Positions 1 to 19,255 of a stretch of 64,000 bases of DNA are shown here, one piece after another. Origin of the DNA: Microcoleaceae cyanobacterium. GTDB lineage: Bacteria > Cyanobacteriota > Cyanobacteriia > Cyanobacteriales > Microcoleaceae. Numbering within the stretch: the stretch's first letter is position 1; the number at the start of each line of letters is the position of its first letter. Under the pieces are notes generated by a model. The model was not told the DNA's origin and made no database searches. It worked only from the letters and a program-made list of their open reading frames with translations. The stretch spans positions 32,001 through 96,000 of the forward strand of contig JBOFUV010000148.1 in the NCBI GenBank assembly GCA_051652765.1, read 5' to 3'. The position numbers and the translations under genes were made by a program.

Positions 1-862
1 CAGCCCCAGAACGCAAGGCCAAGGTTCCAGCGGTGTGACGCAGGCTATGGGTGGATAAGGTTCTCCCTTGAGTATGTTTCAGTTCAGCTTGGTTGAGGTA
101 AGCGTCCACAATTAATCGCACCCCGCGACGGGACAGCCGTTGGCCTCCAGCCCGATTTCCCACGGCGATAAATAGCGGATCGGCAGACTTGAACTGTTCC
201 TCTGATTCACGAATCTCCAAATAACAGTTCAACAGTTCGGCAATGTCCGGAGTCAGAGGAACGACTCGAATACTGCGTTTGCCTTCTACCCGAATCCCCA
301 GATTCCGACCCTGTTTGACGATATCTGCAATATTGGCCCGGTGAAGTTCAACGGTTCGAGGCCCTTCCAAGGCCATAATAGCAATCAAAACCCGATCCCG
401 TGAGGTTTTCAAGGTTCCATCATTGGGAATTGTGGCGAAGAGTTGCTCAACTTCATCTTGTTCCAGATAGGTAATTCGTTCGGCTGGATCACGTTTTTCT
501 CTGGGCGGTTTCACTCCGGTTGCAGGGTTCATAGACAGTAACCCTTTGTCTACTGCTGCTTGATAGAACCGCCGTACCACCGAAAGTTTCAGAGCAATCG
601 TTGCAGGTTTGAATTTTTTGGTGTCTACCATCCAACGGCGATATTTTTTAATTCCTTCTTTGGTTACGGTGGCGGGAGGAAGCTGATGGCGATCACACCA
701 GATTAAAAATTGCAGGAGTTGGCGTTGATAAGTAGTTAAGGTGTCTTTGGAAGCATCCCCCGCCCCAACGTCAATTTCCAGAAAATCTGCAAATGCTGCC
801 AAAAGTTCATCTGTTGGAATCAGCGCGTTAGGTTCGAAAATTTGCAGGGGGGCAGTGAACAT
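1..862 (-). CDS. Tyrosine recombinase/integrase (XerC/D-like); 3' end runs off the window
   Basis: Not in the ORF track. Hand translation from ATG at 862: MFTAPLQIF...DTLTTYQRQL...KPATIALKLSVVRRFY...RDRVLIAIMALEGPRTVEL...VEGKRSIRVVPL...THSLRHTAGTLALRSGA. SAM-like N-domain, catalytic Arg, Lys loop and HxxR motif are visible. Confidence 0.92.
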   Translation of the reverse strand, partial: MFTAPLQIFEPNALIPTDELLAAFADFLEIDVGAGDASKDTLTTYQRQLLQFLIWCDRHQLPPATVTKEGIKKYRRWMVDTKKFKPATIALKLSVVRRFYQAAVDKGLLSMNPATGVKPPREKRDPAERITYLEQDEVEQLFATIPNDGTLKTSRDRVLIAIMALEGPRTVELHRANIADIVKQGRNLGIRVEGKRSIRVVPLTPDIAELLNCYLEIRESEEQFKSADPLFIAVGNRAGGQRLSRRGVRLIVDAYLNQAELKHTQGRTLSTHSLRHTAGTLALRSGA

Positions 863-1006
863 GTTAGGAAAATTCAGAGTCCAGAGCGTTAGGTTGCTGA
901 CATACCTCTATAGTGTCTCAAATCTGCTGTGAAGTCTCAACTTATTCTCGGAATCGGGCTGACTCCTGATCGGCTAAAGGGAGATGGCCGAGAATCTACT
1001 GACGAT

Positions 1007-1825
1007 TCAGAACAAAGTGCCCTGAACAATTTGCGGTTGTGGGTTGGCTGGTTTAGGTGGCCAAAATACACCAAGTACAACCCACTTATTGTAAGGAAAC
1101 ACTGTGCCCATAAAGAAAAGGGTATCCTTACTCTCGTTACACAATTCATCGAGAAACTTACGGTGGACACTTAATGCTGCTTGGTGTTCATCACCTAGTC
1201 GAACTACTTCATTCAACCAAAGTACGCCCAGTTCCCAGTCCTCAATCATCGCATTATGAGGTTTGTGGCTGTCAGCGCACTCAAAAACATAACTAAATTT
1301 GTACGGTATTTTGCGAAGAGGTTTTTGAACAGGCCCGAAGAGAGTTAATTGATCGAACAGAGCCTGCCATTTGGGTTTCCATTCTGAATCAGCAGGTTCA
1401 ATTTTTAAATCAAGCACCCTTGTCGGACGCACAATACCAAGAGATACATTTTCGGAATCATGTAATGAGCATAATTCCTTTACTGTATAGACAGGTATCC
1501 GATCAATGATTTGACGGCGCGCGCTCCACCCATTTTTTGTTGATAGTGGTTCTCCTAAAGCTCTTATTGTATCTAGATTTGGCTTTCTACTTTCCTTTCG
1601 TCGATCATTGCCTGCTCCATGTGGTAGAAGATCAACTTCTATCCACTGATATTTACGAAATTGTTGATTTCTTGGTCTATAGCGGTAGTCTACGGGGTAA
1701 AGTCGAATCCATTCACCCTGCTCAGTTACACCAGCAGTACACACCAGTTCTTGATAACCTCTCGATGGATGGGGATAGGTCATCACAGTGATAAGAACTT
1801 TGGTTCTTATTTCTTGATTGCTCAT
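1007..1825 (-). CDS. Conserved hypothetical protein, partner of the DUF488 protein (resembles dual-OB-type partners)
   Basis: Long ORF with a CTAGV...GEWIRLYP motif. ATG at 1825 overlaps the upstream stop (ATGA), implying translational coupling. Confidence 0.7.
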   Translation of the reverse strand: MSNQEIRTKVLITVMTYPHPSRGYQELVCTAGVTEQGEWIRLYPVDYRYRPRNQQFRKYQWIEVDLLPHGAGNDRRKESRKPNLDTIRALGEPLSTKNGWSARRQIIDRIPVYTVKELCSLHDSENVSLGIVRPTRVLDLKIEPADSEWKPKWQALFDQLTLFGPVQKPLRKIPYKFSYVFECADSHKPHNAMIEDWELGVLWLNEVVRLGDEHQAALSVHRKFLDELCNESKDTLFFMGTVFPYNKWVVLGVFWPPKPANPQPQIVQGTLF

Positions 1826-2694
1826 ACTGGACATCCTAAATGCTGAATTGGCATGTCAATCAAGGTTGTCAGATGCTGAGCAAGAACATTTCGATGACAG
1901 AATTTTGGGTCAGCTTCCATACAAACAAGAACACTAGGCTTAGATTTTAACAAGCCAGTTACATTCAGCAATGCATCCTCTCGTGAGGGAAGACTACTTC
2001 GATAATCATTAAAAAGAGACGTGTACTTATCGGAAGAACTTAGATCATCTCGTTCGGAACCAGGTATTCCTAGTTCGGGAAGATGCTGATAGTCTATTCC
2101 TAGAAAATTACATAGTCGTGCGAGTGTACTCTTATGAAAACCATAGCGTCTAGAGATCGGGTTGAAGCGAACATCGATTAGCTGTGAGATACCAGATTCC
2201 ATCAGAAGATTTAGAAACTCATCAACCGTTTTTCCTTCATAACCAGCAGTGTAGATAGCTTTCTGAGCAATGGGTCGTTTTTTCTTTCTTCTTCCAGGAA
2301 GATCACTGTTAACTGTAAACCAGGAATATTTGTCATAGACTAAATCAAGCAGCTCTTGACTTGATAAATTGCCATACTCAGTAGCAACATAATGGATGTC
2401 TTGAGCTACATTTCTAGGTAAATTAACATCGAACTTTTTCCCTAAATCCGTTAGGCTCCAACAATTATTGTTTCCTTTTTCTAAAAAGCCATTACGAATA
2501 AGTGAATCAGTTTCCTGATTTAGGGTAAAAGAGTAGGGTCCGTAACGATACGGGATGAACTGATAAAAAGTTTTTCCTCCGTGAGAAGCAGTTTCGTGAG
2601 ACAGCAAAAATGCCCACTTCATCACTTGCAAAGGAGATGCAGTAGATCCGACCTGCTGAAGAATCAGTAATAGAGCTTTTTGACGATGTAGCAC
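1822..2694 (-). CDS. Panacea/SocA (DUF4065)-like winged-helix domain fused to DUF488
   Basis: N-terminus has K-x2-F...F.PYRYGPYS. C-terminus has IYTAGYEG...LIDVRFNP.S...YQHLPELG...LVCMEADPKFCHR, typical of DUF488. Confidence 0.8.
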   Translation of the reverse strand: MLHRQKALLLILQQVGSTASPLQVMKWAFLLSHETASHGGKTFYQFIPYRYGPYSFTLNQETDSLIRNGFLEKGNNNCWSLTDLGKKFDVNLPRNVAQDIHYVATEYGNLSSQELLDLVYDKYSWFTVNSDLPGRRKKKRPIAQKAIYTAGYEGKTVDEFLNLLMESGISQLIDVRFNPISRRYGFHKSTLARLCNFLGIDYQHLPELGIPGSERDDLSSSDKYTSLFNDYRSSLPSREDALLNVTGLLKSKPSVLVCMEADPKFCHRNVLAQHLTTLIDMPIQHLGCPV

Positions 2695-3341: not shown

Positions 3342-3773
3342 ATGGAAGAACTAAAGCATCTGGCAACTTGGGTCAAAGAGCAGCACGCAGCGGAGTATAT
3401 TTTAACCTGGCTACTCAATCAGCCTGGAATTTGGTGGTCAAATGGAGAGGTTTATCAAGCTGCCGTTCAGAGATCAGGCAAACAGTTAAAAGAGTATGTC
3501 AAAAACAGTAAACAGGGTGGTTTATTTCAAGGAATTGCTGACAAGGTTGTCAGAGATGAAGTTTGGGATAATATTGCGGTGAGTCTCGCAACCGTGATTG
3601 CTGCTTACCAAGAAGAGTTAGTAAAATTGCAGGATCAAAATCGCTTACGAGTCGTATCCAAGGTGGATTTAGAACATCAAGATAGTAGCTCTAATCCTAA
3701 CGACCCTTGGATTGGCTTGAAAATTCAACAACCCTTGCCGAATCCCAATACAGATGCACTGACAGGGCGTTAA
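3342..3773 (+). CDS. Hypothetical protein
   Basis: 143-aa ORF with AGGAG upstream; no family recognised. Confidence 0.6.
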   Translation: MEELKHLATWVKEQHAAEYILTWLLNQPGIWWSNGEVYQAAVQRSGKQLKEYVKNSKQGGLFQGIADKVVRDEVWDNIAVSLATVIAAYQEELVKLQDQNRLRVVSKVDLEHQDSSSNPNDPWIGLKIQQPLPNPNTDALTGR

Positions 3774-3853: not shown

Positions 3854-4777
3854 ATGATGAGACGACTCACTGCTTTTTCAAGGATAGTTCCCGTTCCAGT
3901 CGGGCTAGGGTTGGCCCTGTGGGTTGCGTTGACCTTGAGTAACTGCACTTCTTCAACGCAACCTCAAGCTTTGACTGCTCCAGCCAATCCAGCAACAACT
4001 GCAAATCAGACAACCACTCCTCCCATTGCTGTGGCTGCAAATTCTACTGTACTCTGGGCAAATGACTTTACGGGAGATTGGCCAGCAGTTTGGCAAACCC
4101 GGAAAAAGGGGGCTTGGGGCTTGGATAATGCTCAAGTGATTCCCGCCGATTCCCGCCCGCAGTTTTCTAAAGCGCTACGGGTCTTTTATCCAGCCCTGTC
4201 TGCAAGTCCAAGTGTTTCGCGCAGTCAGGGAGTTCCCATTGGGGGAGTACAGTTCTACGCTGAGTTAGGAATACCGTCCAAAGATGCTTTAAAACTGAGT
4301 TACTTCGTACGATTTGCCGAGAATTTTGACTTTGTTAAAGGTGGAAAATTACCCGGATTATTCGGGGGAACTGAAACCAGTGGTGGAAATATTCCGGATG
4401 GTACGAATGGCTTTTCGACTCGGTTCATGTGGCGGAAACAAGGGGATGGTGAGGTCTATGCTTACCTCCCCAGCAGTGAAGAATATGGTACCTCGATTGG
4501 TCGGGGCGCTTGGCAATTTCAGCCCGGTGTGTGGCATCATCTGGAACAAGAATTGACTCTAAATCAACCCGGCCTTGAGAATGGTCGCATTCGAGTTTGG
4601 GTGGATGGTAAGTTGGTGTTGGATCGGGACAAACTAATGTTTCGGACAACAGAACAATTAAAAATTGAAGGGATCTTCTTCTCTACTTTCTTTGGGGGAG
4701 GAGATCCCTCTTGGGCAACCCCTAAAGATACTTATGTTGACTTTGCTGCTTTCTCAGTTTCATCCGTTGATGAGTGA
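3854..4777 (+). CDS. Polysaccharide lyase family 14-like (alginate/glucuronan lyase) lipoprotein
   Basis: FDFVKGGKLPGL, FSTRFMWR and FFSTFFGG motifs; hydrophobic signal ending LTLSNC (possible lipobox) and a Pro/Thr linker. Confidence 0.85.
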   Translation: MMRRLTAFSRIVPVPVGLGLALWVALTLSNCTSSTQPQALTAPANPATTANQTTTPPIAVAANSTVLWANDFTGDWPAVWQTRKKGAWGLDNAQVIPADSRPQFSKALRVFYPALSASPSVSRSQGVPIGGVQFYAELGIPSKDALKLSYFVRFAENFDFVKGGKLPGLFGGTETSGGNIPDGTNGFSTRFMWRKQGDGEVYAYLPSSEEYGTSIGRGAWQFQPGVWHHLEQELTLNQPGLENGRIRVWVDGKLVLDRDKLMFRTTEQLKIEGIFFSTFFGGGDPSWATPKDTYVDFAAFSVSSVDE

Positions 4778-4778
4778 C

Positions 4779-4876
4779 CATAGCAATCCTAGATCAATCA
4801 ATCATGAGAGATCTTAGAGAGGGGTTTGGAGATTTTGTCCCCAAACCCCGTTCACAAATTATTTGAGCTTGCTATA
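4779..4876. mobile_element. MITE-like element with an internal hairpin between convergent genes
   Basis: Ends ATAGCAATCCTAGATC... and ...TTCACAAATTATTTGAGCTTGCTATA are imperfect inverted repeats; internal GGGGTTTGG/CCAAACCCC stem. Confidence 0.5.
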
Positions 4877-4895
4877 CGCTTAAACACTCAAACGG

Positions 4896-7013
4896 TTACT
4901 GAGAATTGCTGGCGGGGGAAAATTGATAGGCAGGACTTGCTGCAGAAACAGTTGCCCCTCTGAGGGTGACGTATTCTAGAGTAATGTCTTGGGTCTGGTC
5001 TAACACAACCGGACGGCCATCCCCAACTAAGTCAACATCCCTGACCAAAGCATTGCTAACATTTCTAAACAGCACTCCATCTAAGGACGATGAGGGGCGA
5101 GACGATGTGATCTCAGGCGCAGTCCGCAGCGTGAATCCCCTGAGTTGAACATTTTTAATACTGCTGGCTTGATCGTTCGGCTGCACAATCCAGAATGCAG
5201 GTTGCTGAGTTGACCCAAAATGGGCTTGTAGAATGGTACGTTCAGCATCTTGTCCCCGAATCACAACATTACTGCGTTGGAGAATGATGGGCTGGAATAG
5301 ATCCAATTCTCCAATCGGCAGGTTGACTTGAATCAATCCGATATCTGGCAGTTGATCGATCAAAGCCTGAAGCTTCTGAGCATCGTCACGGCGATCATTA
5401 GAGACAACGCCATATTCGCTGGCGTTCACCACTTGAGTCATCTGCTCAATCGTAGGATCTTGCCGCTTCACCCACCATCCTTGCAGATCTTGCACAGGAG
5501 TTAGGACACCAAACCAACACCACAACAAGGCAACGAAAAAGATGACAACTTGTGTAGCCAGGAGAAAGCGGGAGACGGTCACTTGAAGGTGGCGCACCCA
5601 ACCCGACGCGCCCGCCGTAATCTTTTGATTGCCGCGATTGTTCCAGCTTTGCTGCGCCATATTCATCTGGTTCCAAACTTTGATCACCGATGAAGTCCAC
5701 TGGGTTGCCACCAGAATTGGAAAGTGAATGGGTTTGAGGTGGGAAGGTCGTCCCAAGAAAATAATTAACAACATTAAGGGACGGCTGAAACAGACCCAGG
5801 CAACAATAATTCCAGCAAACAGCCATTTTCCAGTGACTAAAGACAGAATTAGCAAGCCTGGAGTAATCAAGGATGTCCACATACTGATGCGTTGATCCAC
5901 CAAACACCACCAGGGAAACAGTCCAACCACGGAGGGGCCTAGGGAAATCGCCCGACTATTACTTCGCAGCATATTTCCAAACCATCGCCGCATGTTGCTA
6001 TAAGCCCGTTGTACTACTGATCCAGAGTGAGTTTCTAGGGAATTCACAATCACATCAGGCACGTAAATCATTTCATAGCGCCATCGCAGGAGAGAGTACC
6101 AAGTACTTTTGTCATCTCCTGATAAAAATTTGAAGCGACCCCACAGCCAGTCATCCAAGGAGTCGTTCTCAAGCTGATGAATAAAGTCAGGGTGAAAGGT
6201 TGCTCGGGAATGAAATAAAGAAAACCGCCCTGTCAGGCAAAGCACCTTACGAGAAAGGGCCATAGAACACATTTGATAGTGGCGTTGGGCAAATCGCAGA
6301 TGAAACCATTCAGAAAAAACATAGGAGCCTTTGACAACGGGCATTTCATCCGTAGTTAAGGCTCCTAACTTGGGAAACAGACGAAAGAAGGGTAAACACC
6401 CGCGTAACGTTCCTGGGCCAAGTTCAGTATCCCCGTCCATGAGAGCTACGATGGTATCTTCAGGTAATCCCAGATTTCGTAGCTCTTTGAGGCTGTCGGC
6501 CATGGCTTTGCGCTTGCCATCCTTTTGGGTCATCAGAAACAGTTGAATATGCTTTAGACCCGGATCATACTCTTCTAGAAGCTGGCGAATGGCGGCATTT
6601 TCTTCGTCACTGCTACTATTCACCAAAACCGTAACCGGATGAGCTAACGTTTTGGCCTCAGCAACAATAGACTGATAAACGAGTTCATTGACCCACATTT
6701 TTTCTTTGTATGTGGGAACCATAAAACACATATGAGGCAGGTCTTCTACTGGAACCTCACTCGCTCGCTGTCGCCACCGGGGAAATATAACATGGAGATA
6801 AAAGCGGCTCCGGAGGACTTGAAACATGAACCAAGACCAGCGCCAAAGTCCTACAATACCCATTCCAACTACACCGGACATTCCCATCTCTGCCAGTTTC
6901 GCTGGATCGCGCAATAAGACCAGACTGAAAAATCCAACGGCAGAAATGAGTAACATCCCGACCCAACTCTGGCTTTGGCTGGGTTGCTTATCGTCAACAA
7001 CTGTACTTGTCAT
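4896..7013 (-). CDS. alg8: Alg8-like GT2 alginate/mannuronan polymerase with a C-terminal right-handed beta-helix domain
   Basis: GKRKAMA, DGDT, LTTDE, LRFAQRH..MCSMALSRKVL.LTGR, FKFLSGDDKS, RRWFGNMLR and DQRISMWTSL closely match Alg8 motifs. C-terminal VNASEYGVVSNDRRDDAQKLQALID is a pectate_lyase_3-type start. Confidence 0.85.
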   Translation of the reverse strand: MTSTVVDDKQPSQSQSWVGMLLISAVGFFSLVLLRDPAKLAEMGMSGVVGMGIVGLWRWSWFMFQVLRSRFYLHVIFPRWRQRASEVPVEDLPHMCFMVPTYKEKMWVNELVYQSIVAEAKTLAHPVTVLVNSSSDEENAAIRQLLEEYDPGLKHIQLFLMTQKDGKRKAMADSLKELRNLGLPEDTIVALMDGDTELGPGTLRGCLPFFRLFPKLGALTTDEMPVVKGSYVFSEWFHLRFAQRHYQMCSMALSRKVLCLTGRFSLFHSRATFHPDFIHQLENDSLDDWLWGRFKFLSGDDKSTWYSLLRWRYEMIYVPDVIVNSLETHSGSVVQRAYSNMRRWFGNMLRSNSRAISLGPSVVGLFPWWCLVDQRISMWTSLITPGLLILSLVTGKWLFAGIIVAWVCFSRPLMLLIIFLGRPSHLKPIHFPILVATQWTSSVIKVWNQMNMAQQSWNNRGNQKITAGASGWVRHLQVTVSRFLLATQVVIFFVALLWCWFGVLTPVQDLQGWWVKRQDPTIEQMTQVVNASEYGVVSNDRRDDAQKLQALIDQLPDIGLIQVNLPIGELDLFQPIILQRSNVVIRGQDAERTILQAHFGSTQQPAFWIVQPNDQASSIKNVQLRGFTLRTAPEITSSRPSSSLDGVLFRNVSNALVRDVDLVGDGRPVVLDQTQDITLEYVTLRGATVSAASPAYQFSPASNSQ

Positions 7014-7243
7014 AGGGTTTCAGGCAAATTTTGTGATTTCAAGTCAGCAATTCAAATCTGCACTCTGGGTCTGCACTCTTCTGGGTCTGCGCCTTAATAA
7101 AGCTCTGAACCTCAGGGTCAGATACTGCAGACTTTTCAGCGGGCACAATCCTTCTAAGACTATCTGTCGCCGGGGTTTGACTCTCATAGAGAAGACTCTC
7201 ATATAGGACATGTCTAAACCCTGAAAAGTTGGGGAGCAATCTA

Positions 7244-10012
7244 CTATTTCTGGCCGGGTTTGGACACAACAACAGGTTGAGCGGATCGACCGGGCAACCA
7301 AGTCCGAACTCGATCGGGCAGTCGGTGAACCATCCTTGCCATGGAGTCCAGCTGCGAACTAGACCGTTTGGCAAAGGTGATGTGGGCAACTTGTCCCAAG
7401 CCACAAAGTTGCTGGGCTTGACCATGATCGGGTGGGGGTGGAATTTTGACAGTTACTCGTTTGAGAAAGGGTTCATCCATCAGTTCGGCAGGAATTGTGG
7501 GTGACAACGCCTGGACTTGCATTCGGCGACCCTGGTTATCAATATCTCCCAATGTTCCCGGTAGAGCTTCTGGACTAAGCTTTGTCATAGGCTGGATTAA
7601 ATCAACTTCTCCTTTAAGGATTTGGGAATGGCTCCCTAAGCGCACCTGAACCGGTTGTTGAAGATCAATCCGACTAGCATCTTCTGCACTCACCACCGTT
7701 TCTACCCAGAGGTTGTTGCAATCCAACAAACTCAGAACAGCTTCAGACTGATTGACGATTTCGCCTTTTTCGCGCTCAGTCCGATAGACGATGCTAGAAA
7801 ATGGTGCTGTCAATTGCATTTCAATGGGGGGTTGATTCTGTTGCTGGAGTTGTTGCTGTCCTGAGACGGCTTGCTGTTGTAACTGAAGTTGTTCTTTGTG
7901 GAGCTTTTCCTGTGCTTGTTGCACCCGCACCTGCTCTTGCCGAAGGCTTTCCTGATTGACCTTTTCTGCCTGCATCTGAGTCCTACGCACGTTGTAAAGG
8001 TTTTCTGCCAAAACAAGCTGATGCTCTAGATTCGACACTTCAGTCACCAACGTGTTCGCGGTGGCAGATTGCTGCTCTAGTTGCTGATCCAGTTGCGAAG
8101 CTTCCTGGGTCAGGGCATTAGAATATTTGTTGTTGGCGGTCAGTCCAGCCTCGGTAGCATTGAAGGAAACCTCAGATGCTCGTAGAGCTTCTTTGGCTAC
8201 GGTGACTTCCGCTTGGGCTGCTTCCCACGCGGCTCTGAGTTGATCGACCCGTTGAGCAGGAGCAACTCCTTCAATTTGGAGAGCTTGAAAGCGTTCGTAT
8301 TCACTGCGAGCAAATTTGGCGTGGGCAGTTGCCTGATCCAGGAGTGCCTGTTTTTGGGGAACGTCTGTGGCATTAACACTGATTTCCACAGTGCGCCGTT
8401 GCTGGTATTCCTGCTGAATTTCCTGTAGACGACTTGCGATTGAGCGCTTAGAGCGTTCTGCTGCTTCGAGTTGACCCTGTTTAGTTTCCAGGTCGCCTCG
8501 GAGTTGTAGGATCTCTTGCTGAGCTTTGTAGGATAAATCCTCTAACCTAGTATATTGCGTGTTATCGGTTTTTATAGGTTCAACCTTAGGCGGTTCTGAT
8601 TTGAATTCCATCAAGGTTACGGGCTTGGATTGCTCGTACAGCTCTCTGTCACCTGGAATTCGTTCAATTCGGGCTAATACTTGATTGGCATCCACAACGG
8701 CCCCTGGACGGGCATAGAACTCTGTGATGTTGCCGTTGATGGGCGATCGCAACCGCACCAAACGACCATTGACAACCCCCTGGTTCACAGTCATGTTGGT
8801 CATGCGATGCAAAATCGATGTTGCTGCAATCCCGACTGCTGCTAAACTTGCTCCAACAAACGCCGTGCCAACAAAAAAGCGCCAAACCACACTCGGCTTT
8901 TTTTCAGGGAGCACGGGTCTGGGATTGAAGGGCTTGATTTCAGAACGGCTAGGTTCTGGTTTGCTGATTTGACTCTGGGAAGTGCCTGATACCGTTAACA
9001 CAACCGGCAATCCTTCTGGATGAACCGGAACCAGAGTTGAAGCAGGCGGGGGTTCTGAGGAAAGTGTGAGCGAAGGTTCTGCAGGCTCAACCGCACTTAA
9101 TACTTCAGCGGGCAACGCTTCAGAGGCAAGATTTGGCAAGGGCAGAGGGGAGTTCAAGGGCAGTCGATCGGGTTGGGCGGCTCTGGTTGCTACATCATCC
9201 TCTTCCAATTGAGTCGCAAATATATTGATCCAGGGAGCGAGTTGGGGAGTGGGTTCTGGTAGACGCAGCAAATTCCCTTGAATACCGTCTAGGTCAATTT
9301 CCAGAACCCGTTTTAACGTCTGCTGATCAGCCACGGATTTCACCGTAACTTGACCCAAGGTATGACTAATCTCCTGCAAACGCCTCACCAGAGCAACTCG
9401 TTTTGAGGTGGCTCGAATTTCTTCCAGAAACTGAGGATGCAGTTTCACTAAATCGACGGGGAGTTGCTTGCACTGAGCCAGGGTTAGTTCTTGCCCGGTA
9501 AAGCTGTCGATCACAAATAGGCAACCCAAGGCCGTTAAACCCTGAACAAATGCCAAAGCCGTTGAGAAGTTTTGGGCAATTACAGATTCAGCCAATTCAA
9601 AGCTGAGTTGTCGGGGCTGTAGCTTACTATTGGTGATCCAGAGCTTTAGATCTTGTAAAAACGTTTGATCGTCAAATACCAGATCTGAGAGATTGATAGA
9701 CAGGTGCAGTCTGGGAAAGGGCAGAAGAGCTTCAATTGCTTTTCCGACAACATACCGATCAAGTTGAGGTAATAGTCCCATATCTGCCAAGATGGGCATA
9801 AACTCGTCTGGCAAATAGAGTTTGCCTTGAAAATCTCGCCACCGTAACAACACCTCATTGTGCAACACTTCGTAATTGCTGGTGAAGTACGTTGGCTGAT
9901 ACCAAAGCTCAAATTGTCCAACTTCAAAGGACTGTTCACTAGAGTTCCAAGAATTTGTGCTGGTTTTTGATTCTGGGTGATACATCTTGGTAATGATGAA
10001 GGTAAATTGCAA
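7244..10012 (-). CDS. Degenerate EAL domain + TM + HlyD/MFP protein (Alg44-like copolymerase)
   Basis: N-terminal YQP...EVLLR...SINLS...FELAE EAL fold; Pro-rich linker; TM FFVGTAFVGASLAAVGIAA; LRSPINGNI and LTAPFSSIV lipoyl halves around a long coiled coil; LSLLDC. Confidence 0.85.
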   Translation of the reverse strand: MQFTFIITKMYHPESKTSTNSWNSSEQSFEVGQFELWYQPTYFTSNYEVLHNEVLLRWRDFQGKLYLPDEFMPILADMGLLPQLDRYVVGKAIEALLPFPRLHLSINLSDLVFDDQTFLQDLKLWITNSKLQPRQLSFELAESVIAQNFSTALAFVQGLTALGCLFVIDSFTGQELTLAQCKQLPVDLVKLHPQFLEEIRATSKRVALVRRLQEISHTLGQVTVKSVADQQTLKRVLEIDLDGIQGNLLRLPEPTPQLAPWINIFATQLEEDDVATRAAQPDRLPLNSPLPLPNLASEALPAEVLSAVEPAEPSLTLSSEPPPASTLVPVHPEGLPVVLTVSGTSQSQISKPEPSRSEIKPFNPRPVLPEKKPSVVWRFFVGTAFVGASLAAVGIAATSILHRMTNMTVNQGVVNGRLVRLRSPINGNITEFYARPGAVVDANQVLARIERIPGDRELYEQSKPVTLMEFKSEPPKVEPIKTDNTQYTRLEDLSYKAQQEILQLRGDLETKQGQLEAAERSKRSIASRLQEIQQEYQQRRTVEISVNATDVPQKQALLDQATAHAKFARSEYERFQALQIEGVAPAQRVDQLRAAWEAAQAEVTVAKEALRASEVSFNATEAGLTANNKYSNALTQEASQLDQQLEQQSATANTLVTEVSNLEHQLVLAENLYNVRRTQMQAEKVNQESLRQEQVRVQQAQEKLHKEQLQLQQQAVSGQQQLQQQNQPPIEMQLTAPFSSIVYRTEREKGEIVNQSEAVLSLLDCNNLWVETVVSAEDASRIDLQQPVQVRLGSHSQILKGEVDLIQPMTKLSPEALPGTLGDIDNQGRRMQVQALSPTIPAELMDEPFLKRVTVKIPPPPDHGQAQQLCGLGQVAHITFAKRSSSQLDSMARMVHRLPDRVRTWLPGRSAQPVVVSKPGQK

Positions 10013-11009: not shown

Positions 11010-12089
11010 GTGAAACTCGAATCTCTGCTTAATCCTCTAACTGTTACCCTTGTTGGCCAATTTGCCCAACTTGCTTTAAATTGCATCACCCGTGAATATC
11101 CCCATGTTCACCGCTACTGGTTAGCAAATGCCAAAGATTTCGTGCCCCCTAGACAGTTGACCCCAGCATTCTACGGTTGCCTGGATTGGCACTCGGCGGT
11201 ACATAGTCATTGGACTCTAGTTCGGGCGATTAGATGTTGTCCTGATCTGAGCTTTGAACAGGAAGCAAGGGCAGCCATCACTCAAAACCTCACTCCACAG
11301 AAGATCGCCCTCGAGGTGAACTATCTCGAATCTCAACCCCGCTTTGAGTGTCCCTATGGGTTGGCTTGGCTCTTACAGTTGATGGCAGAGTTGACGGAAT
11401 GGCCAGATCCCCAAGCTCAAACCTGGTTAGCTCAGCTCAAACCGTTAGAAACAGTAGCCGTGCATAACCTCCAAACTTGGATGACGGGCTTAACGTATCC
11501 TGATCGCACCGGAACCCACAATCAAACGGCTTTTGCCCTTGGCCTAATCTGGGATTGGGCTACGGTCACCTGCAATCAATCTGTGATCACTCAGATTCAG
11601 CAATTGACCCAACAGTTCTATTACAAAGATTGTAATTACCCTCTTTATCTTGAGCCGTTAGGCTATGATTTTCTTTCACCCAGTTTGGCCGAGGCAGACC
11701 TGATGCGTCGTTGTTTTGCTCCTGAGTCTTTTGCGCTCTGGTTCACGGCGTTCCTCCCAAAAGTTTTAGATCAAAAAACCTTAGATCAACAAGCCTTAGA
11801 TCAGGATGAACTTAGATGGCTCCAGCCTGTTCACATTCAAAATCCTGAAGATTATAGTCAATCTCATCTTGAGGGCTTAAACCTAAGTCGTGCCTGGATG
11901 CTAGAAGGAATCATTAACGGATTGCCAGAACAAGATCCCCGAATTTCAACCTTGCAACAGACTGCATTAATTCATCGTCAAGCTGGATTTAATCCAGTTT
12001 CAATCCATCACTATGGAGGCAGCCATTGGTTAGGGAGCTTTGCAGTTTATTTAATAACTCAAAGAGGTTTAATCCCCTTAAAACGATGA
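11010..12089 (+). CDS. DUF2891 family protein
   Basis: PAFYGCLDWHSAVHSHW, FECPYGLAW, GTHNQTAF, HLEGLNLSRAW, HYGGSHWLGSFA. Confidence 0.88.
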   Translation: MKLESLLNPLTVTLVGQFAQLALNCITREYPHVHRYWLANAKDFVPPRQLTPAFYGCLDWHSAVHSHWTLVRAIRCCPDLSFEQEARAAITQNLTPQKIALEVNYLESQPRFECPYGLAWLLQLMAELTEWPDPQAQTWLAQLKPLETVAVHNLQTWMTGLTYPDRTGTHNQTAFALGLIWDWATVTCNQSVITQIQQLTQQFYYKDCNYPLYLEPLGYDFLSPSLAEADLMRRCFAPESFALWFTAFLPKVLDQKTLDQQALDQDELRWLQPVHIQNPEDYSQSHLEGLNLSRAWMLEGIINGLPEQDPRISTLQQTALIHRQAGFNPVSIHHYGGSHWLGSFAVYLITQRGLIPLKR

Positions 12090-12111
12090 TTAAATACTAT
12101 GACTGAAGACT

Positions 12112-13116
12112 ATGACTGAACTCAGACAGAACTTAATTACTAGAGATTGGGTGATCATCGCCACTGAACGAGCGAAAAGACCCGATCAATTTACTAAAGC
12201 TGAAGTTAGAAAGATTAAGCTCCCTCCCTACCGAGAAGAATGTCCCTTTTGTCGGGGCAATGAACACCTCACAGGTAGTGATGAAACGCTACGATTGCAG
12301 GAGGATGATGACACAAACTGGAAAGTTCGAGTCGTCGGCAATCGATACCCAGCCCTATCTTCAACTGGAGAGCGAGTTCGGTGTATTGATGGTATTTTTC
12401 GGTCTCTGTCTGGGGTGGGATTTCATGAAGTTGTAATCGAATATCCGCATCATCACCTCACAACGGCTTTGATGAAAGTTGAGGATGTTGCTAACATTTT
12501 AAGGGTCTATAAAAGACGCTATATTGAACTCCGAAAAGATCCTCGGGTTGAAACAATTATTATTTTTAAAAACCACGGTCGGGGGGCAGGAACCTCCTTG
12601 GAACATCCCCATTCTCAAATTGCCGCACTCCCCATTGTGCCCTACCAATGGCGCGATCGCGCCGAAGAAGCTATCCGACATTATGATGACACCGGAGAAT
12701 GTATTTTCTGTCGAACTTTAGCAGAAGAACTCGAAGCCAAAGAACGAGTATTTTGTGAGACACAACACTTTGTTGCTTTTATTCCCTATGCAGCTCTCTC
12801 TCCATTTCACACCTGGATTTTTCCCCGTCGCCATGCCTCTTCCTTTGATGAAATTACGGAGGTAGAAATTGTTGATCTGGCTGAAAATCTAAAAACGGTT
12901 TTAGCAAAATATTACTTCGGATTACATAATCCAGATTTCAATTACACGATTCGTTCTATCCCAACCTCGGAACAACGCACCGACTATTTTCATTGGTACA
13001 TTGCAATTGTTCCCAGAGTTTCCTTAGCGGCTGGCTTTGAGTTGGGAAGTGGGATGTATATCAATACGGCCTTACCCGAAGAAAGTGCTGCTTTTTTGCG
13101 GAATATAAGTGCATAA
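12112..13116 (+). CDS. galT: Galactose-1-phosphate uridylyltransferase (HIT family)
   Basis: ERAKRP, CPFC, GTSLEHPHSQ, AGFELGSG. Confidence 0.9.
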   Translation: MTELRQNLITRDWVIIATERAKRPDQFTKAEVRKIKLPPYREECPFCRGNEHLTGSDETLRLQEDDDTNWKVRVVGNRYPALSSTGERVRCIDGIFRSLSGVGFHEVVIEYPHHHLTTALMKVEDVANILRVYKRRYIELRKDPRVETIIIFKNHGRGAGTSLEHPHSQIAALPIVPYQWRDRAEEAIRHYDDTGECIFCRTLAEELEAKERVFCETQHFVAFIPYAALSPFHTWIFPRRHASSFDEITEVEIVDLAENLKTVLAKYYFGLHNPDFNYTIRSIPTSEQRTDYFHWYIAIVPRVSLAAGFELGSGMYINTALPEESAAFLRNISA

Positions 13117-13227: not shown

Positions 13228-15231
13228 TCACGCTCTTAGAAGTAAGGCTAATAAGCTGACAGAAATCGTAGTGGGCTTAACCCCTTCACTTAAGATTAAG
13301 TTCTTCTCATCGGTATCCTTCACCAATTCAATAACGAAAGCAGAGGTTTCCAGTTCTGCCTTGACTCCATCGGTATAGTCCCGCAGGAGTTTTTGAACTG
13401 ATTTAATTCCCTTCCAAGTGTTCAACTTCTTGAGCGTATCTTTCACCGTTTTGCGATCGAGTCCATCGGGAAGGCTATCTAACGCACTGATTCTCTATAG
13501 CTCATAGTCGGTTTCGCTAAAGCCCAGTTCGCCCATCTCGCGTTTCCAGTTGTCATGCAACTTGCGAATAGCGACGATCGCAATTTTGGCTTGTCCATTA
13601 GTAGCGCGGTAGAGCCGAGAGACGGTAGCTGCCAAACGGGTCTTACCTAAACCTACCGCATCGGCACAGACAGAAATGCCAAAGTCCTGCATGACCCGCA
13701 GGCAATGTTGAGCGCCTGATTTCTGGTGTTCAAACAGCGTTCCTTGATTCACCAGTTCATCGAGCAAATCGCTTTGCTCTACTCGAAATTGCCGGGGGCG
13801 TTGCTGTGCTAGCCAGTAGAGGAAATCATTGGGTGTGCCATACTGCCCAGACAGGATGAGTTCTACAGCCTGCTGGAATCCTTCGATCTCGTCAAAGTTG
13901 GGCAGTGCTTCAACTTGGCTGACTTGGGGCGGATGCTTCGGCTGAACGTTATATTCTCCACCTGCATTGTCTTTAACTCGAAAATCGGGGATGGGTTGGG
14001 GCGGGTGATCGGGGGAAACGGTGAAGTCGGCGGTAATCTCCTCTGGGGTCTGTTCGGTGATGTTGACTTCGACAAGGGTGTTGTCTGGAACGGTGATGCT
14101 ATCGACCTGATCAAGGTTGTCGCCTGTGATTTTGACTTCGGTGGTTTCGCCTGGTTGAAGCTCGTCGGGAGTAATTTGATCAATACGGGGCTGTCGCTGT
14201 TGGAGGCGGCGATCGTACTCTTGCAAAACTTGCTGTAAGAATTCTTGAGTCAGATCATAGGCAAGGTCTTGATGCTGCCACTCGCTATCAAACTCTTGAA
14301 TACTTTGCTCGATCGTTTCTTGGTCAAGCTGCTCCCAGGAATAGAGAAAGGTGACGCTTTCAGCGTTGCAAGAGTGGGCAGCACGAGTGAAGTTGTCGGA
14401 GCCTTCGTGCAGGACGTGGTTATCGAGGCGATCACTATAAATGCCTGTTTTTTTGTGATAAAGCGAGCGCTGCTGACTCATCTTAATCAGCTTGATTTCC
14501 AAGAAGCCCAACCGCACCAATTCAGCCATGATCTGGGTGCCATTGAAGGCATTTTCTTCTAGTCCTTGAAGAAATTGATGCAACGTGCGTTGAATGAATT
14601 GGGCGCGATAGTCAGGGCTATGTAGCTTTTCGAGTTCTGCCACATCAGCGCGTTTGGTGAACCCCTGCCAGTCCATTAGCAGCCGAATCTGTCCTTCGGT
14701 TTGGACAATGGTTTGCAGGGGTTCTTCGTAGAGTTTGAGCACGCCACTATCAAAGTAGGCGGTGGAACGGCGGTAAATGCTGCTGCGTTCCAGCATCTGG
14801 GCCGTGACTTTGTTGTATGGCTCTAACTGATCAGGGAGGTTGTAGCGTCGTTTAATGCCTTTGATTTCCCGAAAACTGCCGCTGAGTAGAGCAGGTTCTT
14901 TGGTGGTGCGCTCCAGAGTCAGGAATTTTTCAATGATTTTGAGGTTGCCTGTGCGAAGTAACGCAGGGGAGGGCAGATCGCCCGGTTTGCGGGGATTGTA
15001 GGTGTAGATTTTGGCAGTGCTGGGGTCAATCCGAATCACCCTATGGGGAAGGGCTTTATCCTTAAAACCCAGTAGGGAGACGATGTTTTTCAGAAAGTTG
15101 CCACCCTTGTCAGCATCTCGATGCCGAAAAACAAGCCAGTATTGACCCCCAACCCCTTTAACCGAGTTGCCCTGAAGCAGATAGTAGGGTCGTTGCTGGC
15201 GAACTAAATTTTGGATGACGGCTTCGAGCAT
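13228..15231 (-). pseudogene. PLD-domain / Ig-like / SNF2-type helicase gene with a large internal deletion
   Basis: STAYF, HKKTGIYSD and GSDNFT (PLD); ADAVGLGKT (Walker A). A TAG at 13497-13495 follows motif Ia, and the same frame continues (RISALDSLPDGLDRKTVKD...) to 13228. Helicase motifs II-VI are absent. Confidence 0.8.
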
Positions 15232-15250
15232 GGGGAGGAGGTCTGAAGTC

Positions 15251-15384
15251 TTAGTAGAGGGTCAAAATTTCAAGGGTTGAGTCATCGGTTAAAGCTTGAA
15301 TATCAGTCAGGTGCGATCAGGGAATAGGTCGGCTAACCGATTAGCCAGACGGGGCGATAAGTTGTGATCAAATAACAGCTTCAT
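15251..15384 (-). pseudogene. DUF5615 (VapC45-like PIN) toxin remnant, internally deleted
   Basis: Hand translation: MKLLFDHNLSPRLANRLADLFPD joined out of frame to (S)HLTDIQALTDDSTLEILTLY*. Its ATG overlaps the DUF433 stop. Confidence 0.8.
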
Positions 15385-15605
15385 GCCTGAACCAATAAAG
15401 TCTGACGTTCTCGATCGGCGGCATAGCTTAGGCAAGCCAGAATGTCTTCTTGGGTGAGATAGGGAAAGTCATCAAGAATCTCTTGATAGGTCATGCCAGA
15501 AGCAAGATAGGAAAGTACGTCATAGACTGTGATCCGCATTCCGCGAATGCAAGGTTTGCCGCTGCGTTTGCCCGGTTCGATCGTGATTCTTTCGCGATAG
15601 TTCAT
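15381..15605 (-). CDS. DUF433 family antitoxin
   Basis: MNYRERITIEPGKRSGKPCIRGMRITVYDVL...GMT..EIL.DFP.LT.EDI.ACL.YAA. Confidence 0.92.
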   Translation of the reverse strand: MNYRERITIEPGKRSGKPCIRGMRITVYDVLSYLASGMTYQEILDDFPYLTQEDILACLSYAADRERQTLLVQA

Positions 15606-15639
15606 CGTTTGGTTCCTCCAAGTGGTTTGAGTGATCAGT

Positions 15640-16884
15640 TTATTCAAGGGGCCAACCTGGAATGGCGGCATCAATTTGCTGCATCAAGCTCATAGTTTCT
15701 TGCAACGCCACAACAATGCGTTGATAGTGAACAATGTCTTCTAGGCTGAGAGTGCGACCTTTTCGATCTTTTAACCACTTGTGACAGACTTGATAGCCGC
15801 CAACATAAAATTCCCAGACGGCGTTGGGCACTCCGGTAAATTTGTCGCCCTTCTTGTTGATCAGGACACTGCTGGAGCTTTCGTCATACTTGGGATGTCC
15901 TGGATCAACGGTGCAATTTCCCTCAGCTTCTACGAATTGAGTAATGAGCGTGTCGAGTTTAGGAGACTTCATCAAATGTAATGCAACCAGTTCTTCACCA
16001 TAGGCTGAGAGTTGACGAAAAAGCTCATCATTACTGGTGAGCGGAACGCGAGGAAAGTCAATTTTCAGGAATTCAGCGTAGCGGCTGCGGTAAGTAGGAG
16101 CATGGAAAATGCCATAGATGTAATAAAAAATGGCTTCGGGGGTGGGAGTATAGCCAAGTTTGCCGGTGATGTCTTTGAGGAAGTCGGGTGAGAAGTTGGG
16201 GCGACGATGTTCTATTTCTGTGGATTGCTGAGAATTGCTATTGTCAGGATAGAGATAAAGAGGAAAATCATAATTTGACTCTTTCGTTATATTTGAGATT
16301 AAACAATCATTAGGTACTAAATTAGTGATAAAAAAATGACAATACTTCAATGTTGAAATTTGACGCGAACAGATTAGGCATAAATTCTGCTTCTTGAAGA
16401 TATGCTTCCTTAATTCAGGTCTAGCTCTATCCATTATCGAATCTGAGTAAAACATAAACCTGTTGTCAAAGGGTCTATATCCACAAAGTTCTAAATACTC
16501 CCAGATATTCTCTTCTTTTCCTAATTCTTTTGACGCTTGTTTCCAGTTCCAATTTCCAATTTTATACTTTTTGGAGAAATCTGGATCATTTAAATCAGCA
16601 TTGACTAAATCAGTGATCTTATGTATCAAAGTATCTTTTGTAAAATCAATTGCATAATGATCTCTATGGCTTTTAAATCCATAGACATGACTAGGCATTA
16701 CCTCTGTGATTTTCCAACAGGCTTGATATTCACCCAACAAGTCATTATTTTGCGGAATAAACAAATGAAAGGGTTTTTGGGGTGCAAGTTCTGTCCATGT
16801 CGTTGAAGAGACATCATGACTCAACAGCCACTCATACTTACTTTCTCTATTGCCATACAGATGCGCGTGATAAATTTTGGTCAT
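15640..16884 (-). CDS. Type ISP (LlaBIII-like) C-terminal target-recognition domain, encoded as a separate ORF
   Basis: IYHAHLYGNRESKY, YRPFD, FPLYLY, IFYYIYGIFHAPTYRSRY..FLKIDFPRVP, VWEFYVGGYQVCHKWLKDRKGR. Confidence 0.88.
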   Translation of the reverse strand: MTKIYHAHLYGNRESKYEWLLSHDVSSTTWTELAPQKPFHLFIPQNNDLLGEYQACWKITEVMPSHVYGFKSHRDHYAIDFTKDTLIHKITDLVNADLNDPDFSKKYKIGNWNWKQASKELGKEENIWEYLELCGYRPFDNRFMFYSDSIMDRARPELRKHIFKKQNLCLICSRQISTLKYCHFFITNLVPNDCLISNITKESNYDFPLYLYPDNSNSQQSTEIEHRRPNFSPDFLKDITGKLGYTPTPEAIFYYIYGIFHAPTYRSRYAEFLKIDFPRVPLTSNDELFRQLSAYGEELVALHLMKSPKLDTLITQFVEAEGNCTVDPGHPKYDESSSSVLINKKGDKFTGVPNAVWEFYVGGYQVCHKWLKDRKGRTLSLEDIVHYQRIVVALQETMSLMQQIDAAIPGWPLE

Positions 16885-17288
16885 AGCTCAGCCTCCCAAT
16901 CTTCATACGTCAAACCCTCAATACGGCCAAACTCGCGGGTGTTGTGCGTCACAAGGGTCAGATCATGCGCTAGTGCAATCGCCCCAATCTGGAGATCGTA
17001 TCCTCCAATTGGAGTCCCCAACGCATTGAGCTGAGATCGTGTCTTCCCAGCAACTTCGGCAGCAGATTCATCAAACGGCAGCACTACAAACTGGGCAAAA
17101 AAACGCGCCAACTTAGATAAATTCTGCTCTGTTTTTGTGCCACGATATGCCCCGTAATACAACTCTAGCTGGACAATCGTGCATAAACCAATCTCTTCTG
17201 GTTTATGTTGAGCTAGTCTTTGGGAGACTGAGAGCACATCGCCATTCAGAAGCTTGATGCAAACATTGGTATCTAGCAGGTACTTCAC
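16881..17288 (-). CDS. vapC: VapC PIN-domain toxin
   Basis: YLLDTNVCI, ELYYGA, PIGGYDLQIGAIAL, LVTHNTREF. Confidence 0.93.
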   Translation of the reverse strand: MKYLLDTNVCIKLLNGDVLSVSQRLAQHKPEEIGLCTIVQLELYYGAYRGTKTEQNLSKLARFFAQFVVLPFDESAAEVAGKTRSQLNALGTPIGGYDLQIGAIALAHDLTLVTHNTREFGRIEGLTYEDWEAEL

Positions 17289-17518
17289 CGTAGTTCTTCC
17301 CGTAATTCATAATCTGGCTGAATGTCCCTCACGAGTTTTTCGCCCTCCCATCCCCCAACTACCTCCTCAAAAAAACCGGGCTGCCAGCTTTTCTGGCTGC
17401 TTGGCAGCGTCTGGCTATATTTGTGATTAACAAACATTACAAAGTCCAGGATCTCTTGTAGCAAACCGTCTGGGGTCTTGTTAATTTCATTCATTAACTG
17501 TTCCTGCATAGATGCCAT
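17285..17518 (-). CDS. Putative VapB-type antitoxin (DUF2281-like)
   Basis: Small acidic ORF with EILDFVMFV and WQPGFFEEVVGGWEGE; GTGA overlap with vapC. Confidence 0.75.
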   Translation of the reverse strand: MASMQEQLMNEINKTPDGLLQEILDFVMFVNHKYSQTLPSSQKSWQPGFFEEVVGGWEGEKLVRDIQPDYELREELR

Positions 17519-18717
17519 ATCAGATAAACTTCCATTTAGAATTAAACTGCCGTCGATCGCTTAATCATTAAACCGATAGATACACCCTGCTGAATATCAA
17601 ATACATTTTCATCCTTTGAACCATTGCTCGCAGTTTCTTTTTTCTTAGAATTACCATGCAAATCCAAAACCCGAATCCAATCAAATGTCTTCGCTAAACT
17701 CTGGCGCATTCCCCGAAAAGTTGGATTGTCTAAATAGCCATGATTCGTCACAAAGGCCAGAATTCCTACGCCCGTCCTATCAATCCGCCACTGTGAAAAG
17801 CGAATAAATTTGACGTAATCATCCTGCAACCATTTAGGGTTCTTCTCACCCAGCGGTAGACCATCAACCATATAGTAATCTTTTACTAAACCACTAACCC
17901 AAGCGCTTTTATTCTCTGAGTGTCCTGAATAAGGAGGATTTCCGACGATCACCATAACTGGCACATCGAGCTTTACACCTACGGCTTCATTGGCTTCATC
18001 CGCAATAAACTCCTGAAATAGCGTTTCCGAGCGCCGCTGAGCATCATCTAGCGTATTGGTTAGATAGACTCCTAGTCGTTTTCCACTATCAAACTGATAT
18101 CCTGTTTCTTCTAAAAACAATCCTAACTTAAGATGCGCGATCGCATAGGGAGCCATCAGCAACTCAAACCCAAAAATACGAGGCAACAATCGTTCTTTCA
18201 CATACCCCGACCACGATTTGTCATCTAAACCCACCGTTAGCAGATCTGGGTTCTCCTGAAACTTTCGATGAATCTCTTGAAAAATCCACAGCAAAAACGT
18301 TCCCGTTCCGCAGGCTGGGTCAAGGATCATCACTTCTGGGTCAGCCAACCCCAACGGTTTATCAAACTTCTCCTTCAGCAGAATATCGACAGACCGCACC
18401 ATGTAAGACACCACTGGTTCCGGCGTGTAGTAAACCCCTCGTCGCTCCCGCATTTTGGGCTTATAGGCTGCCAAAAAGTCTTCATAGAACCGAATCACAA
18501 TATCTTCGCGGTTCATCTTGGCGCGAAAGTCAGCCAAAATCGCATCCATCTTGGCAGCCCTAAGAATGCTAAAAACCTCAGCGATCGCGTCTGCCAGATC
18601 TTCACCCAACTCAGCGATCGGCTGCTGCGACACATCTCGGAATAGCCGTCTCAGAAAAGGGTTCGTCTCCGGCAATCGTTCCCAGGCATTCTGGCGGTTA
18701 AAATCTGTCTCCCGACT

Positions 18718-18755
18718 CCCCTCTCTCCTCTTAGGAGAGGGGTTGGGGGTGAGGG
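18718..18755. repeat. Cyanobacterial palindromic repeat (CCCTCACCCCCAACCCCTCTCC...GGAGAG type) inserted in frame in the MTase
   Basis: CCCCTCTCTCCTCTTAGGAGAGGGGTTGGGGGTGAGGG; translated as TLTPNPSPKRREGS. Confidence 0.8.
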
Positions 18756-19218: not shown

Positions 19219-19255
19219 CCTCACCCCCAACTCCTCTCCCAGGTTGGGAGAGGGA
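19219..19255. repeat. Second copy of the same palindromic repeat, opposite orientation, in frame
   Basis: CCTCACCCCCAACTCCTCTCCCAGGTTGGGAGAGGGA; translated as SLSQPGRGVGGE. Confidence 0.8.

Follow-up and report, generated by a model that had tools for sequence, protein, structure and literature searches.

The alginate systems of Pseudomonas and Azotobacter combine an Alg8-family synthase, a single-pass membrane-fusion protein (MFP) with a cytoplasmic domain related to cyclic di-GMP (c-di-GMP), and a periplasmic lyase. A locus with these three components is present in a Microcoleaceae cyanobacterium (contig JBOFUV010000148.1, positions 32,001 to 96,000; this whole stretch of 64,000 nucleotides is what we call the window), where three open reading frames (ORFs) code for a polysaccharide lyase of family PL14, on the forward strand, and, on the reverse strand, for a family 2 glycosyltransferase (GT2) and a protein made of an EAL domain, a transmembrane helix and a HlyD-type membrane-fusion part (EAL-MFP; Table 1). 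The GT2 gene is located downstream of the EAL-MFP gene, on the same strand, and is convergent to the PL14 gene, an arrangement that a first, sequence-only reading of the window had described correctly. Unlike its Pseudomonas and Azotobacter counterparts, the trio has a degenerate EAL domain rather than PilZ, a PL14 rather than a PL5 lyase, and a beta-helix fused to the synthase, and the host genome is without AlgD, AlgK, AlgE and epimerase; the synthase, moreover, differs from that of Pseudomonas in having Gln, not RI[AP]GT, before its GKR motif, and in belonging to a separate clade. Without AlgD, PilZ, AlgK/E and epimerase, the locus falls outside the alginate systems; it is a new variant among the synthase-dependent exopolysaccharide systems and, because the gene for the alginate precursor is absent from the host genome, it probably makes a different acidic polymer, possibly glucuronan.

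The cellulose system of Thermosynechococcus vulcanus, in which BcsB and BcsC give way to a HlyD-like partner and TolC (Maeda 2018, as reviewed in PMC8892547), resembles the locus in associating a synthase (BcsA), a HlyD-like adaptor and a glycanase (a BcsZ-like hydrolase), together with TolC, in the absence of a tetratricopeptide repeat scaffold or porin; it differs in that the host synthase is of the Alg8 type and has no PilZ, that the host lyase is not a hydrolase, and that the c-di-GMP module sits on the adaptor. With the class I hyaluronan synthase (HAS) of chlorovirus, which uses UDP-glucuronate, the Tyr/Glu, Gln..GKR, DxD, GDD, RW and gating-loop motifs can be aligned, but identity is only 12-14%, and HAS works without a partner, adding two sugars in alternation. 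Cyanobacterial loci that we term type A (MFP-algD-alg8-AlgE-like epimerase-PL14) share with the host locus the synthase clade, at ~50-56% identity, the MFP, the PL14 lyase and the tail of the synthase, and differ from it by an intact AlgD (12/12), a YGFDPH epimerase (in 8) and Asp163 instead of Gln. A Halomonadaceae operon (L165), known from its genes alone, likewise has a Gln-type synthase and PL14 with no algD at the locus, and differs by its PilZ-MFP, PL5 lyase, Sel1 scaffold and a ugd gene within the operon.

The host assembly is 99.97% complete, in 158 contigs. Searches of it by Pfam family, by tblastn and with an AlgD profile did not find AlgD; they recovered a single member of the UDP-glucose/GDP-mannose dehydrogenase family, which is Ugd (E 2.6e-125 to UDP-glucose dehydrogenase vs 1.7e-58 to AlgD), of the ordinary cyanobacterial kind and with a short branch (0.029), and which adjoins a UDP-glucuronate decarboxylase-like gene. 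The sequence-only reading had noted that algD, algK and algE were missing from the window, and this absence extends to the whole assembly, where neither the AlgE porin (PF13372) nor a Sel1/AlgK-like profile had a match. No PL5 gene was found in the host genome, its reading frames hold no YG[FI]DPH epimerase motif, an AlgE-like query had no match there, and an AlgG-like profile gave weak, unlinked beta-helix matches only. It has two TolC-family genes, one unlinked MBOAT gene and two weak AlgX/J-like matches. What can be kept of that reading is a remodelled Alg8-type system, with an Alg8-family synthase, an MFP in the position of Alg44 and PL14 in the role of AlgL. Its polymannuronate-like product is not supported for this host: the genome search for AlgD that it had itself proposed met only Ugd, and no working GDP-mannose dehydrogenase was found in the 21 genomes of the same type.

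This type emerges from a comparison of 33 distinct cyanobacterial genomes with the synthase, obtained from a draw on the phylum (7/401), a draw on the order (23/301) and, for nine of them, via relatives; one further relative locus, the duplicate of a counted genome, was left out, and these numbers, which include kin, stand as counts and not as statistical tests. Twelve of the 33 (type A) have an intact algD in the operon, in one example matching P. aeruginosa AlgD (1MFZ) with E 8e-118, and eight of these 12 loci code for a YGFDPHE beta-helix protein that matches Azotobacter AlgE4 (E 2.7e-32); by gene content the type A loci are true alginate loci. The other 21, the host included, have no working AlgD (type B), and a mannuronan epimerase is found in 0/21. 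AlgD was not found in 17 type B genomes, which span at least five families; a single member of the dehydrogenase family is present in 13 of these 17, and the remaining four have extra members that matched the AlgD query less well than E 1e-80, two of which, when inspected, were 28% identical. The last four type B genomes have an unlinked AlgD paralogue only (L078:9899-11398 (-), L079:9258-10751 (-), L080:8408-9889 (+), L201), where GLGYVG has become GLNH[VA]G and GSCLPKD has become GASLLRD; because the NAD motif and the catalytic Cys are lost in the alignment, this paralogue is catalytically dead and ruled out as a working AlgD. It is possible that it acts as a pseudoenzyme sensor of GDP-mannose.

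Type B is not a relic, and it is under purifying selection. The ratio of non-synonymous to synonymous substitution (dN/dS, pairwise, by Nei-Gojobori) in the synthase core is 0.05-0.18 in eight type B pairs vs 0.055-0.12 in four type A pairs; it is 0.15-0.18 for PL14 in two type B pairs, and 0.05-0.28 for the EAL domain in six, with the retained EAL residues conserved. Cultured carriers of type B are Lyngbya sp. PCC 8106 and Lyngbya aestuarii BL J.

The trio itself is found elsewhere, as the synteny survey suggested by the sequence-only reading made clear. An MFP gene lies at most three genes upstream of the synthase, on the same strand, in 33/33 genomes, and PL14 is present in 32/33, the sole genome without it (G439) having a synthase without DGD, GDD and RRW. 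In the phylum draw PL14 is present in 9/401 genomes, among them 7/7 with the synthase, and only 2/394 synthase-less genomes have it. The clustering of the trio is beyond chance and, because synthase, MFP and PL14 occur together across genomes, we can understand the three genes as one functional unit. A full-length synthase that has lost every catalytic motif, still beside its MFP, was seen at L219:1529-3646 (the G439 locus) and at L124.

A quick maximum-likelihood tree of 82 rows (all supports are SH-aLRT values) placed 79 Alg8-like rows apart from three other GT2s of the host (99), the branches of this outgroup being very long. The cyanobacterial synthases form one clade of 41 rows (100), and the Pseudomonas synthases form, with other AlgD-linked proteobacterial ones, a separate clade of 20 rows (100). 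The GT2, which the sequence-only reading had assigned to Alg8, does belong to the wider Alg8 family but is located outside the Pseudomonas/alphaproteobacterial alginate clade. Type A is one nested group (97), the remaining cyanobacterial rows being type B. Topology tests used 61 rows, left of the 82 once outgroups, long branches and near-duplicates had been removed; a clade of type A with the proteobacterial alginate synthases was rejected (approximately unbiased test, p 1e-53), and linkage to AlgD needs two changes on the tree. As types A and B are ~50-56% identical, one with and one without AlgD, they constitute a paired natural control which makes the donor specificity of the Alg8 family testable.

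Eleven conserved synthase columns separate the two types, several of them near the donor site. Residue 163, before GKR, separates them most clearly: it is Gln in 21/21 type B rows, Asp in 17/17 rows with an operon algD, and Ile or Val in 16/16 proteobacterial alginate rows, with RI[AP]GT in 119/119 Pseudomonas proteins. A partly redundant set of 39 cyanobacterial metagenome loci comprises 29 of the Gln type, none with AlgD, nine of the Asp type, AlgD being present in six and the other three having less than 1 kb upstream, and one without the motif. Forty-one more distant loci follow the same partition: the 16 with AlgD have no Gln, 20 carry Gln and none of these shows AlgD at the locus, and five, with neither, have less than 2 kb upstream. 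Gln-type synthases make up 92/115 scorable 50%-identity representatives of the Alg8 family. Both AlgD-linked lineages have lost this Gln. In chlorovirus HAS the counterpart of Gln163 is the Gln of ILQPHRGKR, which precedes His174 of the uracil pocket by two residues; there, His174 and Lys177 surround the uracil of UDP-glucuronate (PMC12987647). The single loop before GKR is in this respect a candidate donor switch.

The ugd gene is linked to Gln-type synthases twice, in a Halomonas-type operon and in one cyanobacterial genus. In the former (L165), the order is ugd, Gln-type alg8, PilZ-MFP, PL14, PL5 lyase and Sel1 protein, with a synthase 84% identical to a Halomonas huangheensis protein and a dehydrogenase that is Ugd (E 5e-163 vs 3e-61 to AlgD); in the latter, the EAL-MFP-synthase pair stands head-to-head with a decarboxylase-ugd operon in four genomes. 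In some loci (L207:6064-8064, L208:2077-4056, L106:2162-4162) the UDP-glucuronate decarboxylase-like gene is ~340 aa longer than in sister genomes and contains a LAGLIDADG domain, the extra ~340 aa being probably an intein.

The synthase aligns with Pseudomonas putida mannuronan synthase at 36% identity over 413 aa (E 4e-88), and the Alg8 motifs that had been read in its sequence, DGDT, LRFAQRHYQMCSMALS, FLSGDDKS, RRWFGN and DQRISMW, are indeed there, in the same order as in that protein; with full-length homology and shared motif order, it is a member of the Alg8 family in the wide sense. It is also 34-38% identical to GT2s of alphaproteobacterial plasmid operons with algD-, algA-, algG-, algI/J/X- and lyase-like genes, and several close relatives carry the JGI labels 'glycosyltransferase Alg8' or 'mannuronan synthase'. 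Residues Y102/E104, Q163, K167, D193-G-D195, G299-D-D301, R343-W344 and W457-x-x-R460 are present. The structure model (mean predicted local distance difference test score 87.6, beta-helix tail included) has a hyaluronan-synthase-like fold (Z 26.8, root-mean-square deviation (rmsd) 2.7, 383 residues aligned), and a profile of 50 mostly Gln-type synthases matches chlorovirus HAS with E 7e-11; a direct sequence search of the PDB with the synthase gave no GT2 match, and no Alg8 structure turned up in the fold searches.

The tail, predicted with high confidence, aligns to the GH110B structure 9BEU (Z 17.1, rmsd 2.0 over 145 residues) and diverges faster than the synthase core in the dN/dS analysis. 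Its role as an in-cis epimerase was ruled out, the DPH motif being present in 0/120 relatives' tails; the helix count would place it on the periplasmic side, where it is probably a non-catalytic guide for the chain. A complex prediction between synthase residues 10-505 and the MFP part scored 0.01 and was used neither for nor against an interaction. Variations on the tail exist in the family: in a metagenomic protein of 777 aa (P0121) the synthase is joined directly to a PL14 lyase that replaces the beta-helix, and a group of Gln-type proteins of ~900 aa (P0125, P0129-P0131, P0134, P0136, P0152-P0154, L125, L137, L139), with no algD at the loci seen, has a long beta-helix tail without the DPH motif and ending in a conserved W-A-P-P-D-G stretch, a tail that is possibly an in-cis lyase or modifier.

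Aligned to solved EAL domains, the domain of the EAL-MFP keeps QP, EVLLR (ExLxR), INLS (the Asn), FELAE (the Glu of FELxE) and QG, while DDFGTG is changed to DSFTGQ, KID to KLH and EGVE to KSVA; in 18/18 aligned relatives the Glu of EGVE is replaced, by Lys or Thr, and loop 6 is altered. An EAL phosphodiesterase needs the DDFGTG of loop 6, KID and the general-base Glu of EGVE, and the EAL-MFP does not have this set. Because its catalytic residues are altered with respect to this mechanism, the domain is probably a receptor and not an enzyme, a c-di-GMP receptor of the LapD/FimX kind that would stand where Alg44 has PilZ. Alg44 proper consists of PilZ, membrane helix and MFP, and here EAL replaces PilZ. 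A profile of 11 Alg44-like proteins does recognise the MFP part (prob 99.7), yet it ranks another MFP of the same genome higher (85 vs 71 bits). Orthology to Alg44 is not established, this control having scored higher, and since the profile is not specific among MFPs the Alg44 role is assigned by gene position and domain architecture. Across the 33 genomes the N-terminus of the MFP is an EAL domain in 21, a receiver domain in one and neither in 11: the adaptor's sensor module can be exchanged, and the synthase co-polymerase of cyanobacteria uses a dead EAL, a receiver domain or no sensor in place of PilZ. The receiver domain is found in L023:127-1953; at L211:11867-12565 a Trans_reg_C gene lies between MFP and algD. 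As for the start of the host EAL-MFP, the ATG at 9985 is likelier than the TTG.

The PL14 protein (PF21294, E 1.6e-64) belongs to its family by this match and by the presence of Lys, Ser-x-Arg and Tyr-x-Tyr, which we take to be the catalytic residues, its GGKLPG, STRxMWR and YAY motifs being intact and conserved in relatives. A signal peptide, with Cys31 in LSNC after a hydrophobic stretch, makes lipid anchoring probable. Lyases of this kind need a uronic acid substrate; because of this, and because PL14 accompanies the synthase in 32/33 genomes with a degenerate synthase in the exception, the product would be a uronate polymer. The family includes beta-1,4-glucuronan lyases besides alginate lyases (PMC11890756). 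PL14 was dropped as a marker of product type, showing only two weak column differences.

By every sequence test the locus is real, conserved and functional, and we give about an even chance to its being a c-di-GMP-gated exporter of a UDP-glucuronate polymer, probably beta-1,4-glucuronan. The degenerate EAL domain would bind c-di-GMP and, by way of the EAL-MFP's own membrane helix, activate the neighbouring Alg8-family synthase, which would polymerise a uronic-acid nucleotide sugar and translocate the polymer through the inner membrane. Guidance, probably to a TolC-type channel encoded elsewhere, as the Thermosynechococcus cellulose system suggests, may then come from the beta-helix tail and from the long adaptor of HlyD type, while the PL14 lipoprotein would trim or clear the chain, as AlgL does. 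The donor in this host would most likely be UDP-glucuronate from the housekeeping Ugd, leading to a beta-1,4-glucuronan-type polymer and not to mannuronan. A broader reading, which falls short of an even chance and which we put forward tentatively, is that Gln-type Alg8 is a UDP-glucuronate polymerase, the majority and probably the ancestral form, from which alginate synthesis would have arisen at least twice, each origin (proteobacteria, cyanobacteria) recruiting AlgD and remodelling the nucleobase pocket, and that the present locus is the minimal cyanobacterial form of a glucuronan synthase, gated by a catalytically dead EAL. If it were true, many genes labelled 'mannuronan synthase' would be mislabelled.

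A number of observations weigh against the glucuronan interpretation and its broader form. The association between Gln and the absence of AlgD reflects two independent origins (sign test, p 0.5), and of three independent pairs two are concordant, none opposite, and in one the motif changes but AlgD does not. Of the 20 distant Gln-type loci, only 10 have at least 4 kb upstream, AlgD having been checked at the locus only; Gln163 adjoins the published uracil contacts and is not among them. The head-to-head linkage to ugd in one genus is a single event, ugd is not linked to the trio in the host genome, and the four dN/dS comparisons with the host genome, where synonymous sites are saturated, give no value. 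That the closest solved relative of the PL14 protein is an abalone-type alginate lyase (5GMT, E 5.9e-34; vAL-1, E 1.5e-7) goes in the same direction, as does the identity of the PL14 active site in types A and B, which fits one polymer or a broad enzyme alike. Furthermore, the dead AlgD is under purifying selection (dN/dS 0.09-0.10 in the four related type B genomes) and branches within the AlgDs of type A, and monophyly of type B is not rejected (p 0.07); because of these facts type B may have had an alginate-producing ancestor.

It is here that true mannuronan (unepimerised alginate) has to be considered, for which a moonlighting Ugd, or else some enzyme not recognised as such, would provide the GDP-mannuronate. 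The clear Alg8 homology, the sister type A loci with algD, mannose-6-phosphate isomerase cupin and AlgE-like epimerase, the shared PL14 active site, the GDP-mannose pyrophosphorylase-like gene of the host genome and the alginate past hinted at by the dead AlgD would all suit it; we nevertheless deem it unlikely, when AlgD is not found in 17 genomes of at least five families, the host Ugd is so ordinary, 11 conserved synthase columns differ between the types and no type B genome has an epimerase. Rather less probable again would be another polymer: another uronate (e.g. from UDP-galacturonate), a glucuronate heteropolymer, or a neutral glycan modified or oxidised later. That the closest solved fold is that of a two-substrate hyaluronan synthase, and that sulfotransferase and GT2/GT4 genes lie between synthase and PL14 in one genus, might evoke such a product, but the relatives' loci show no modifying gene kept beside the trio, and PL14 enzymes are known to act on alginate and on beta-1,4-glucuronan; a neutral glycan is disfavoured because it would leave the lyase without a substrate. 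Finally, the patchy distribution (7/401) and the visibly degenerate synthase of G439 might recall a former alginate locus, now a relic, in which algD has been lost and polymer synthesis has ceased. This we regard as very improbable, all catalytic motifs being intact in the host, the type B pairs showing purifying selection for synthase, EAL-MFP and PL14 alike, and type B extending across several families and making up 111/120 of the nearest proteins listed, a set biased to the query's type.

Earlier work has approached these systems from several sides. One study found neither a PL5 lyase nor an Alg44 of the PilZ-HlyD kind in cyanobacteria, and applies the name 'Alg8/BcsA' to every protein with PF13641 (PMC4594306); a full alginate pathway in Limnothrix has been doubted (PMC6256058). 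The Alg8-AlgD pair of Halothece sp. PCC 7418 was listed as an alginate operon in a 2020 supplement (PMC7112194), and type A has in this way already been flagged once, in a supplement table. The statement of the sequence-only reading that alginate synthesis had not been shown biochemically in cyanobacteria needs amending, as alginate has been claimed from a Synechocystis isolate by nuclear magnetic resonance and gas chromatography-mass spectrometry, without genes (PMC10629183). The accessible parts of the epsSMASH preprint (10.64898/2025.12.21.693542) and of the Shark Bay preprint (10.1101/2022.05.18.492586) do not describe the locus, and in a search that left subscription journals outside we found no published description of the trio, of an EAL-MFP co-polymerase, of the AlgD-less type or of a glucuronan synthase. 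Glucuronan is a known, industrially studied bacterial polymer, the genes of which were stated as unknown in 2023 (PMC10180729); neither of the known rhizobial producers, Peteryoungia rosettiformans DSM 26376 and Sinorhizobium meliloti M5N1CS, turned up in the list of 120 homologues or in 14 plasmid records, chromosomes being outside these. The complete alginate-type loci with epimerase, for their part, concern a class of polymer that matters for mats, crusts and the binding of metals. Those at L022, L117, L210-L212 and L214-L217 comprise MFP, algD, alg8 with beta-helix, PL14, one or two AlgE-like epimerases (YGFDPHE), often in tandem and with PPC domains, and sometimes a mannose-6-phosphate isomerase cupin.

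Table 1. Features of the synthase locus, in window coordinates
Feature	Position	Strand	Details
PL14 polysaccharide lyase, probable lipoprotein	3854..4777	+	307 aa; Pfam PF21294 aa 105-300; 5GMT, vAL-1 matches
Alg8-family processive GT2 synthase/translocase	4896..7013	-	705 aa; synthase part aa 1-500; P. putida match, model, fold search
Short right-handed beta-helix tail of synthase	4953..5435	-	aa 527-687, after last membrane helix
Gln163 codon of synthase (MTQKDGKR)	6525..6527	-	Alignment columns, chlorovirus HAS profile alignment
EAL-TM (transmembrane)-HlyD gene	7244..10012	-	922 aa counted from TTG
Degenerate EAL domain of EAL-MFP	9266..9937	-	aa 26-249; Pfam PF00563 E 1.2e-42
Membrane helix (aa 379-397) and HlyD-type membrane-fusion part, long coiled coil	7244..8878	-	HlyD_3 E 4e-15; hydropathy

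A promoter and terminator scan of the locus stayed at chance level (7 vs 9.3 and 7 vs 9.2), and the viral contigs searched contained no relative. Directly before the PL14 gene, an ORF of 143 aa (3342-3773, +), without Pfam or NCBIfam match, is also seen before PL14 in L004 and L008 and near PL14 in L086, and not in more distant loci. Divergent from the EAL-MFP gene is a pair formed by a DUF2891 gene and a gene of the galactose-1-phosphate uridylyltransferase family (11010-13116, +), which is not kept beside the locus in relatives. Further on (13495-19594, -), type ISP-like restriction-modification genes are in pieces, with an N6 methylase (17542-19047), a specificity domain (15640-16884) and, between the two, a small gene, putatively PIN-like by motif (16881-17288). 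At the other end, positions 1-2694 (-) hold an integrase-like gene, then an ORF of 275 aa of unknown function and a DUF488 protein, the N-terminus of which is weakly SocA/Panacea-like, a set that looks like a mobile defence or toxin-antitoxin module.

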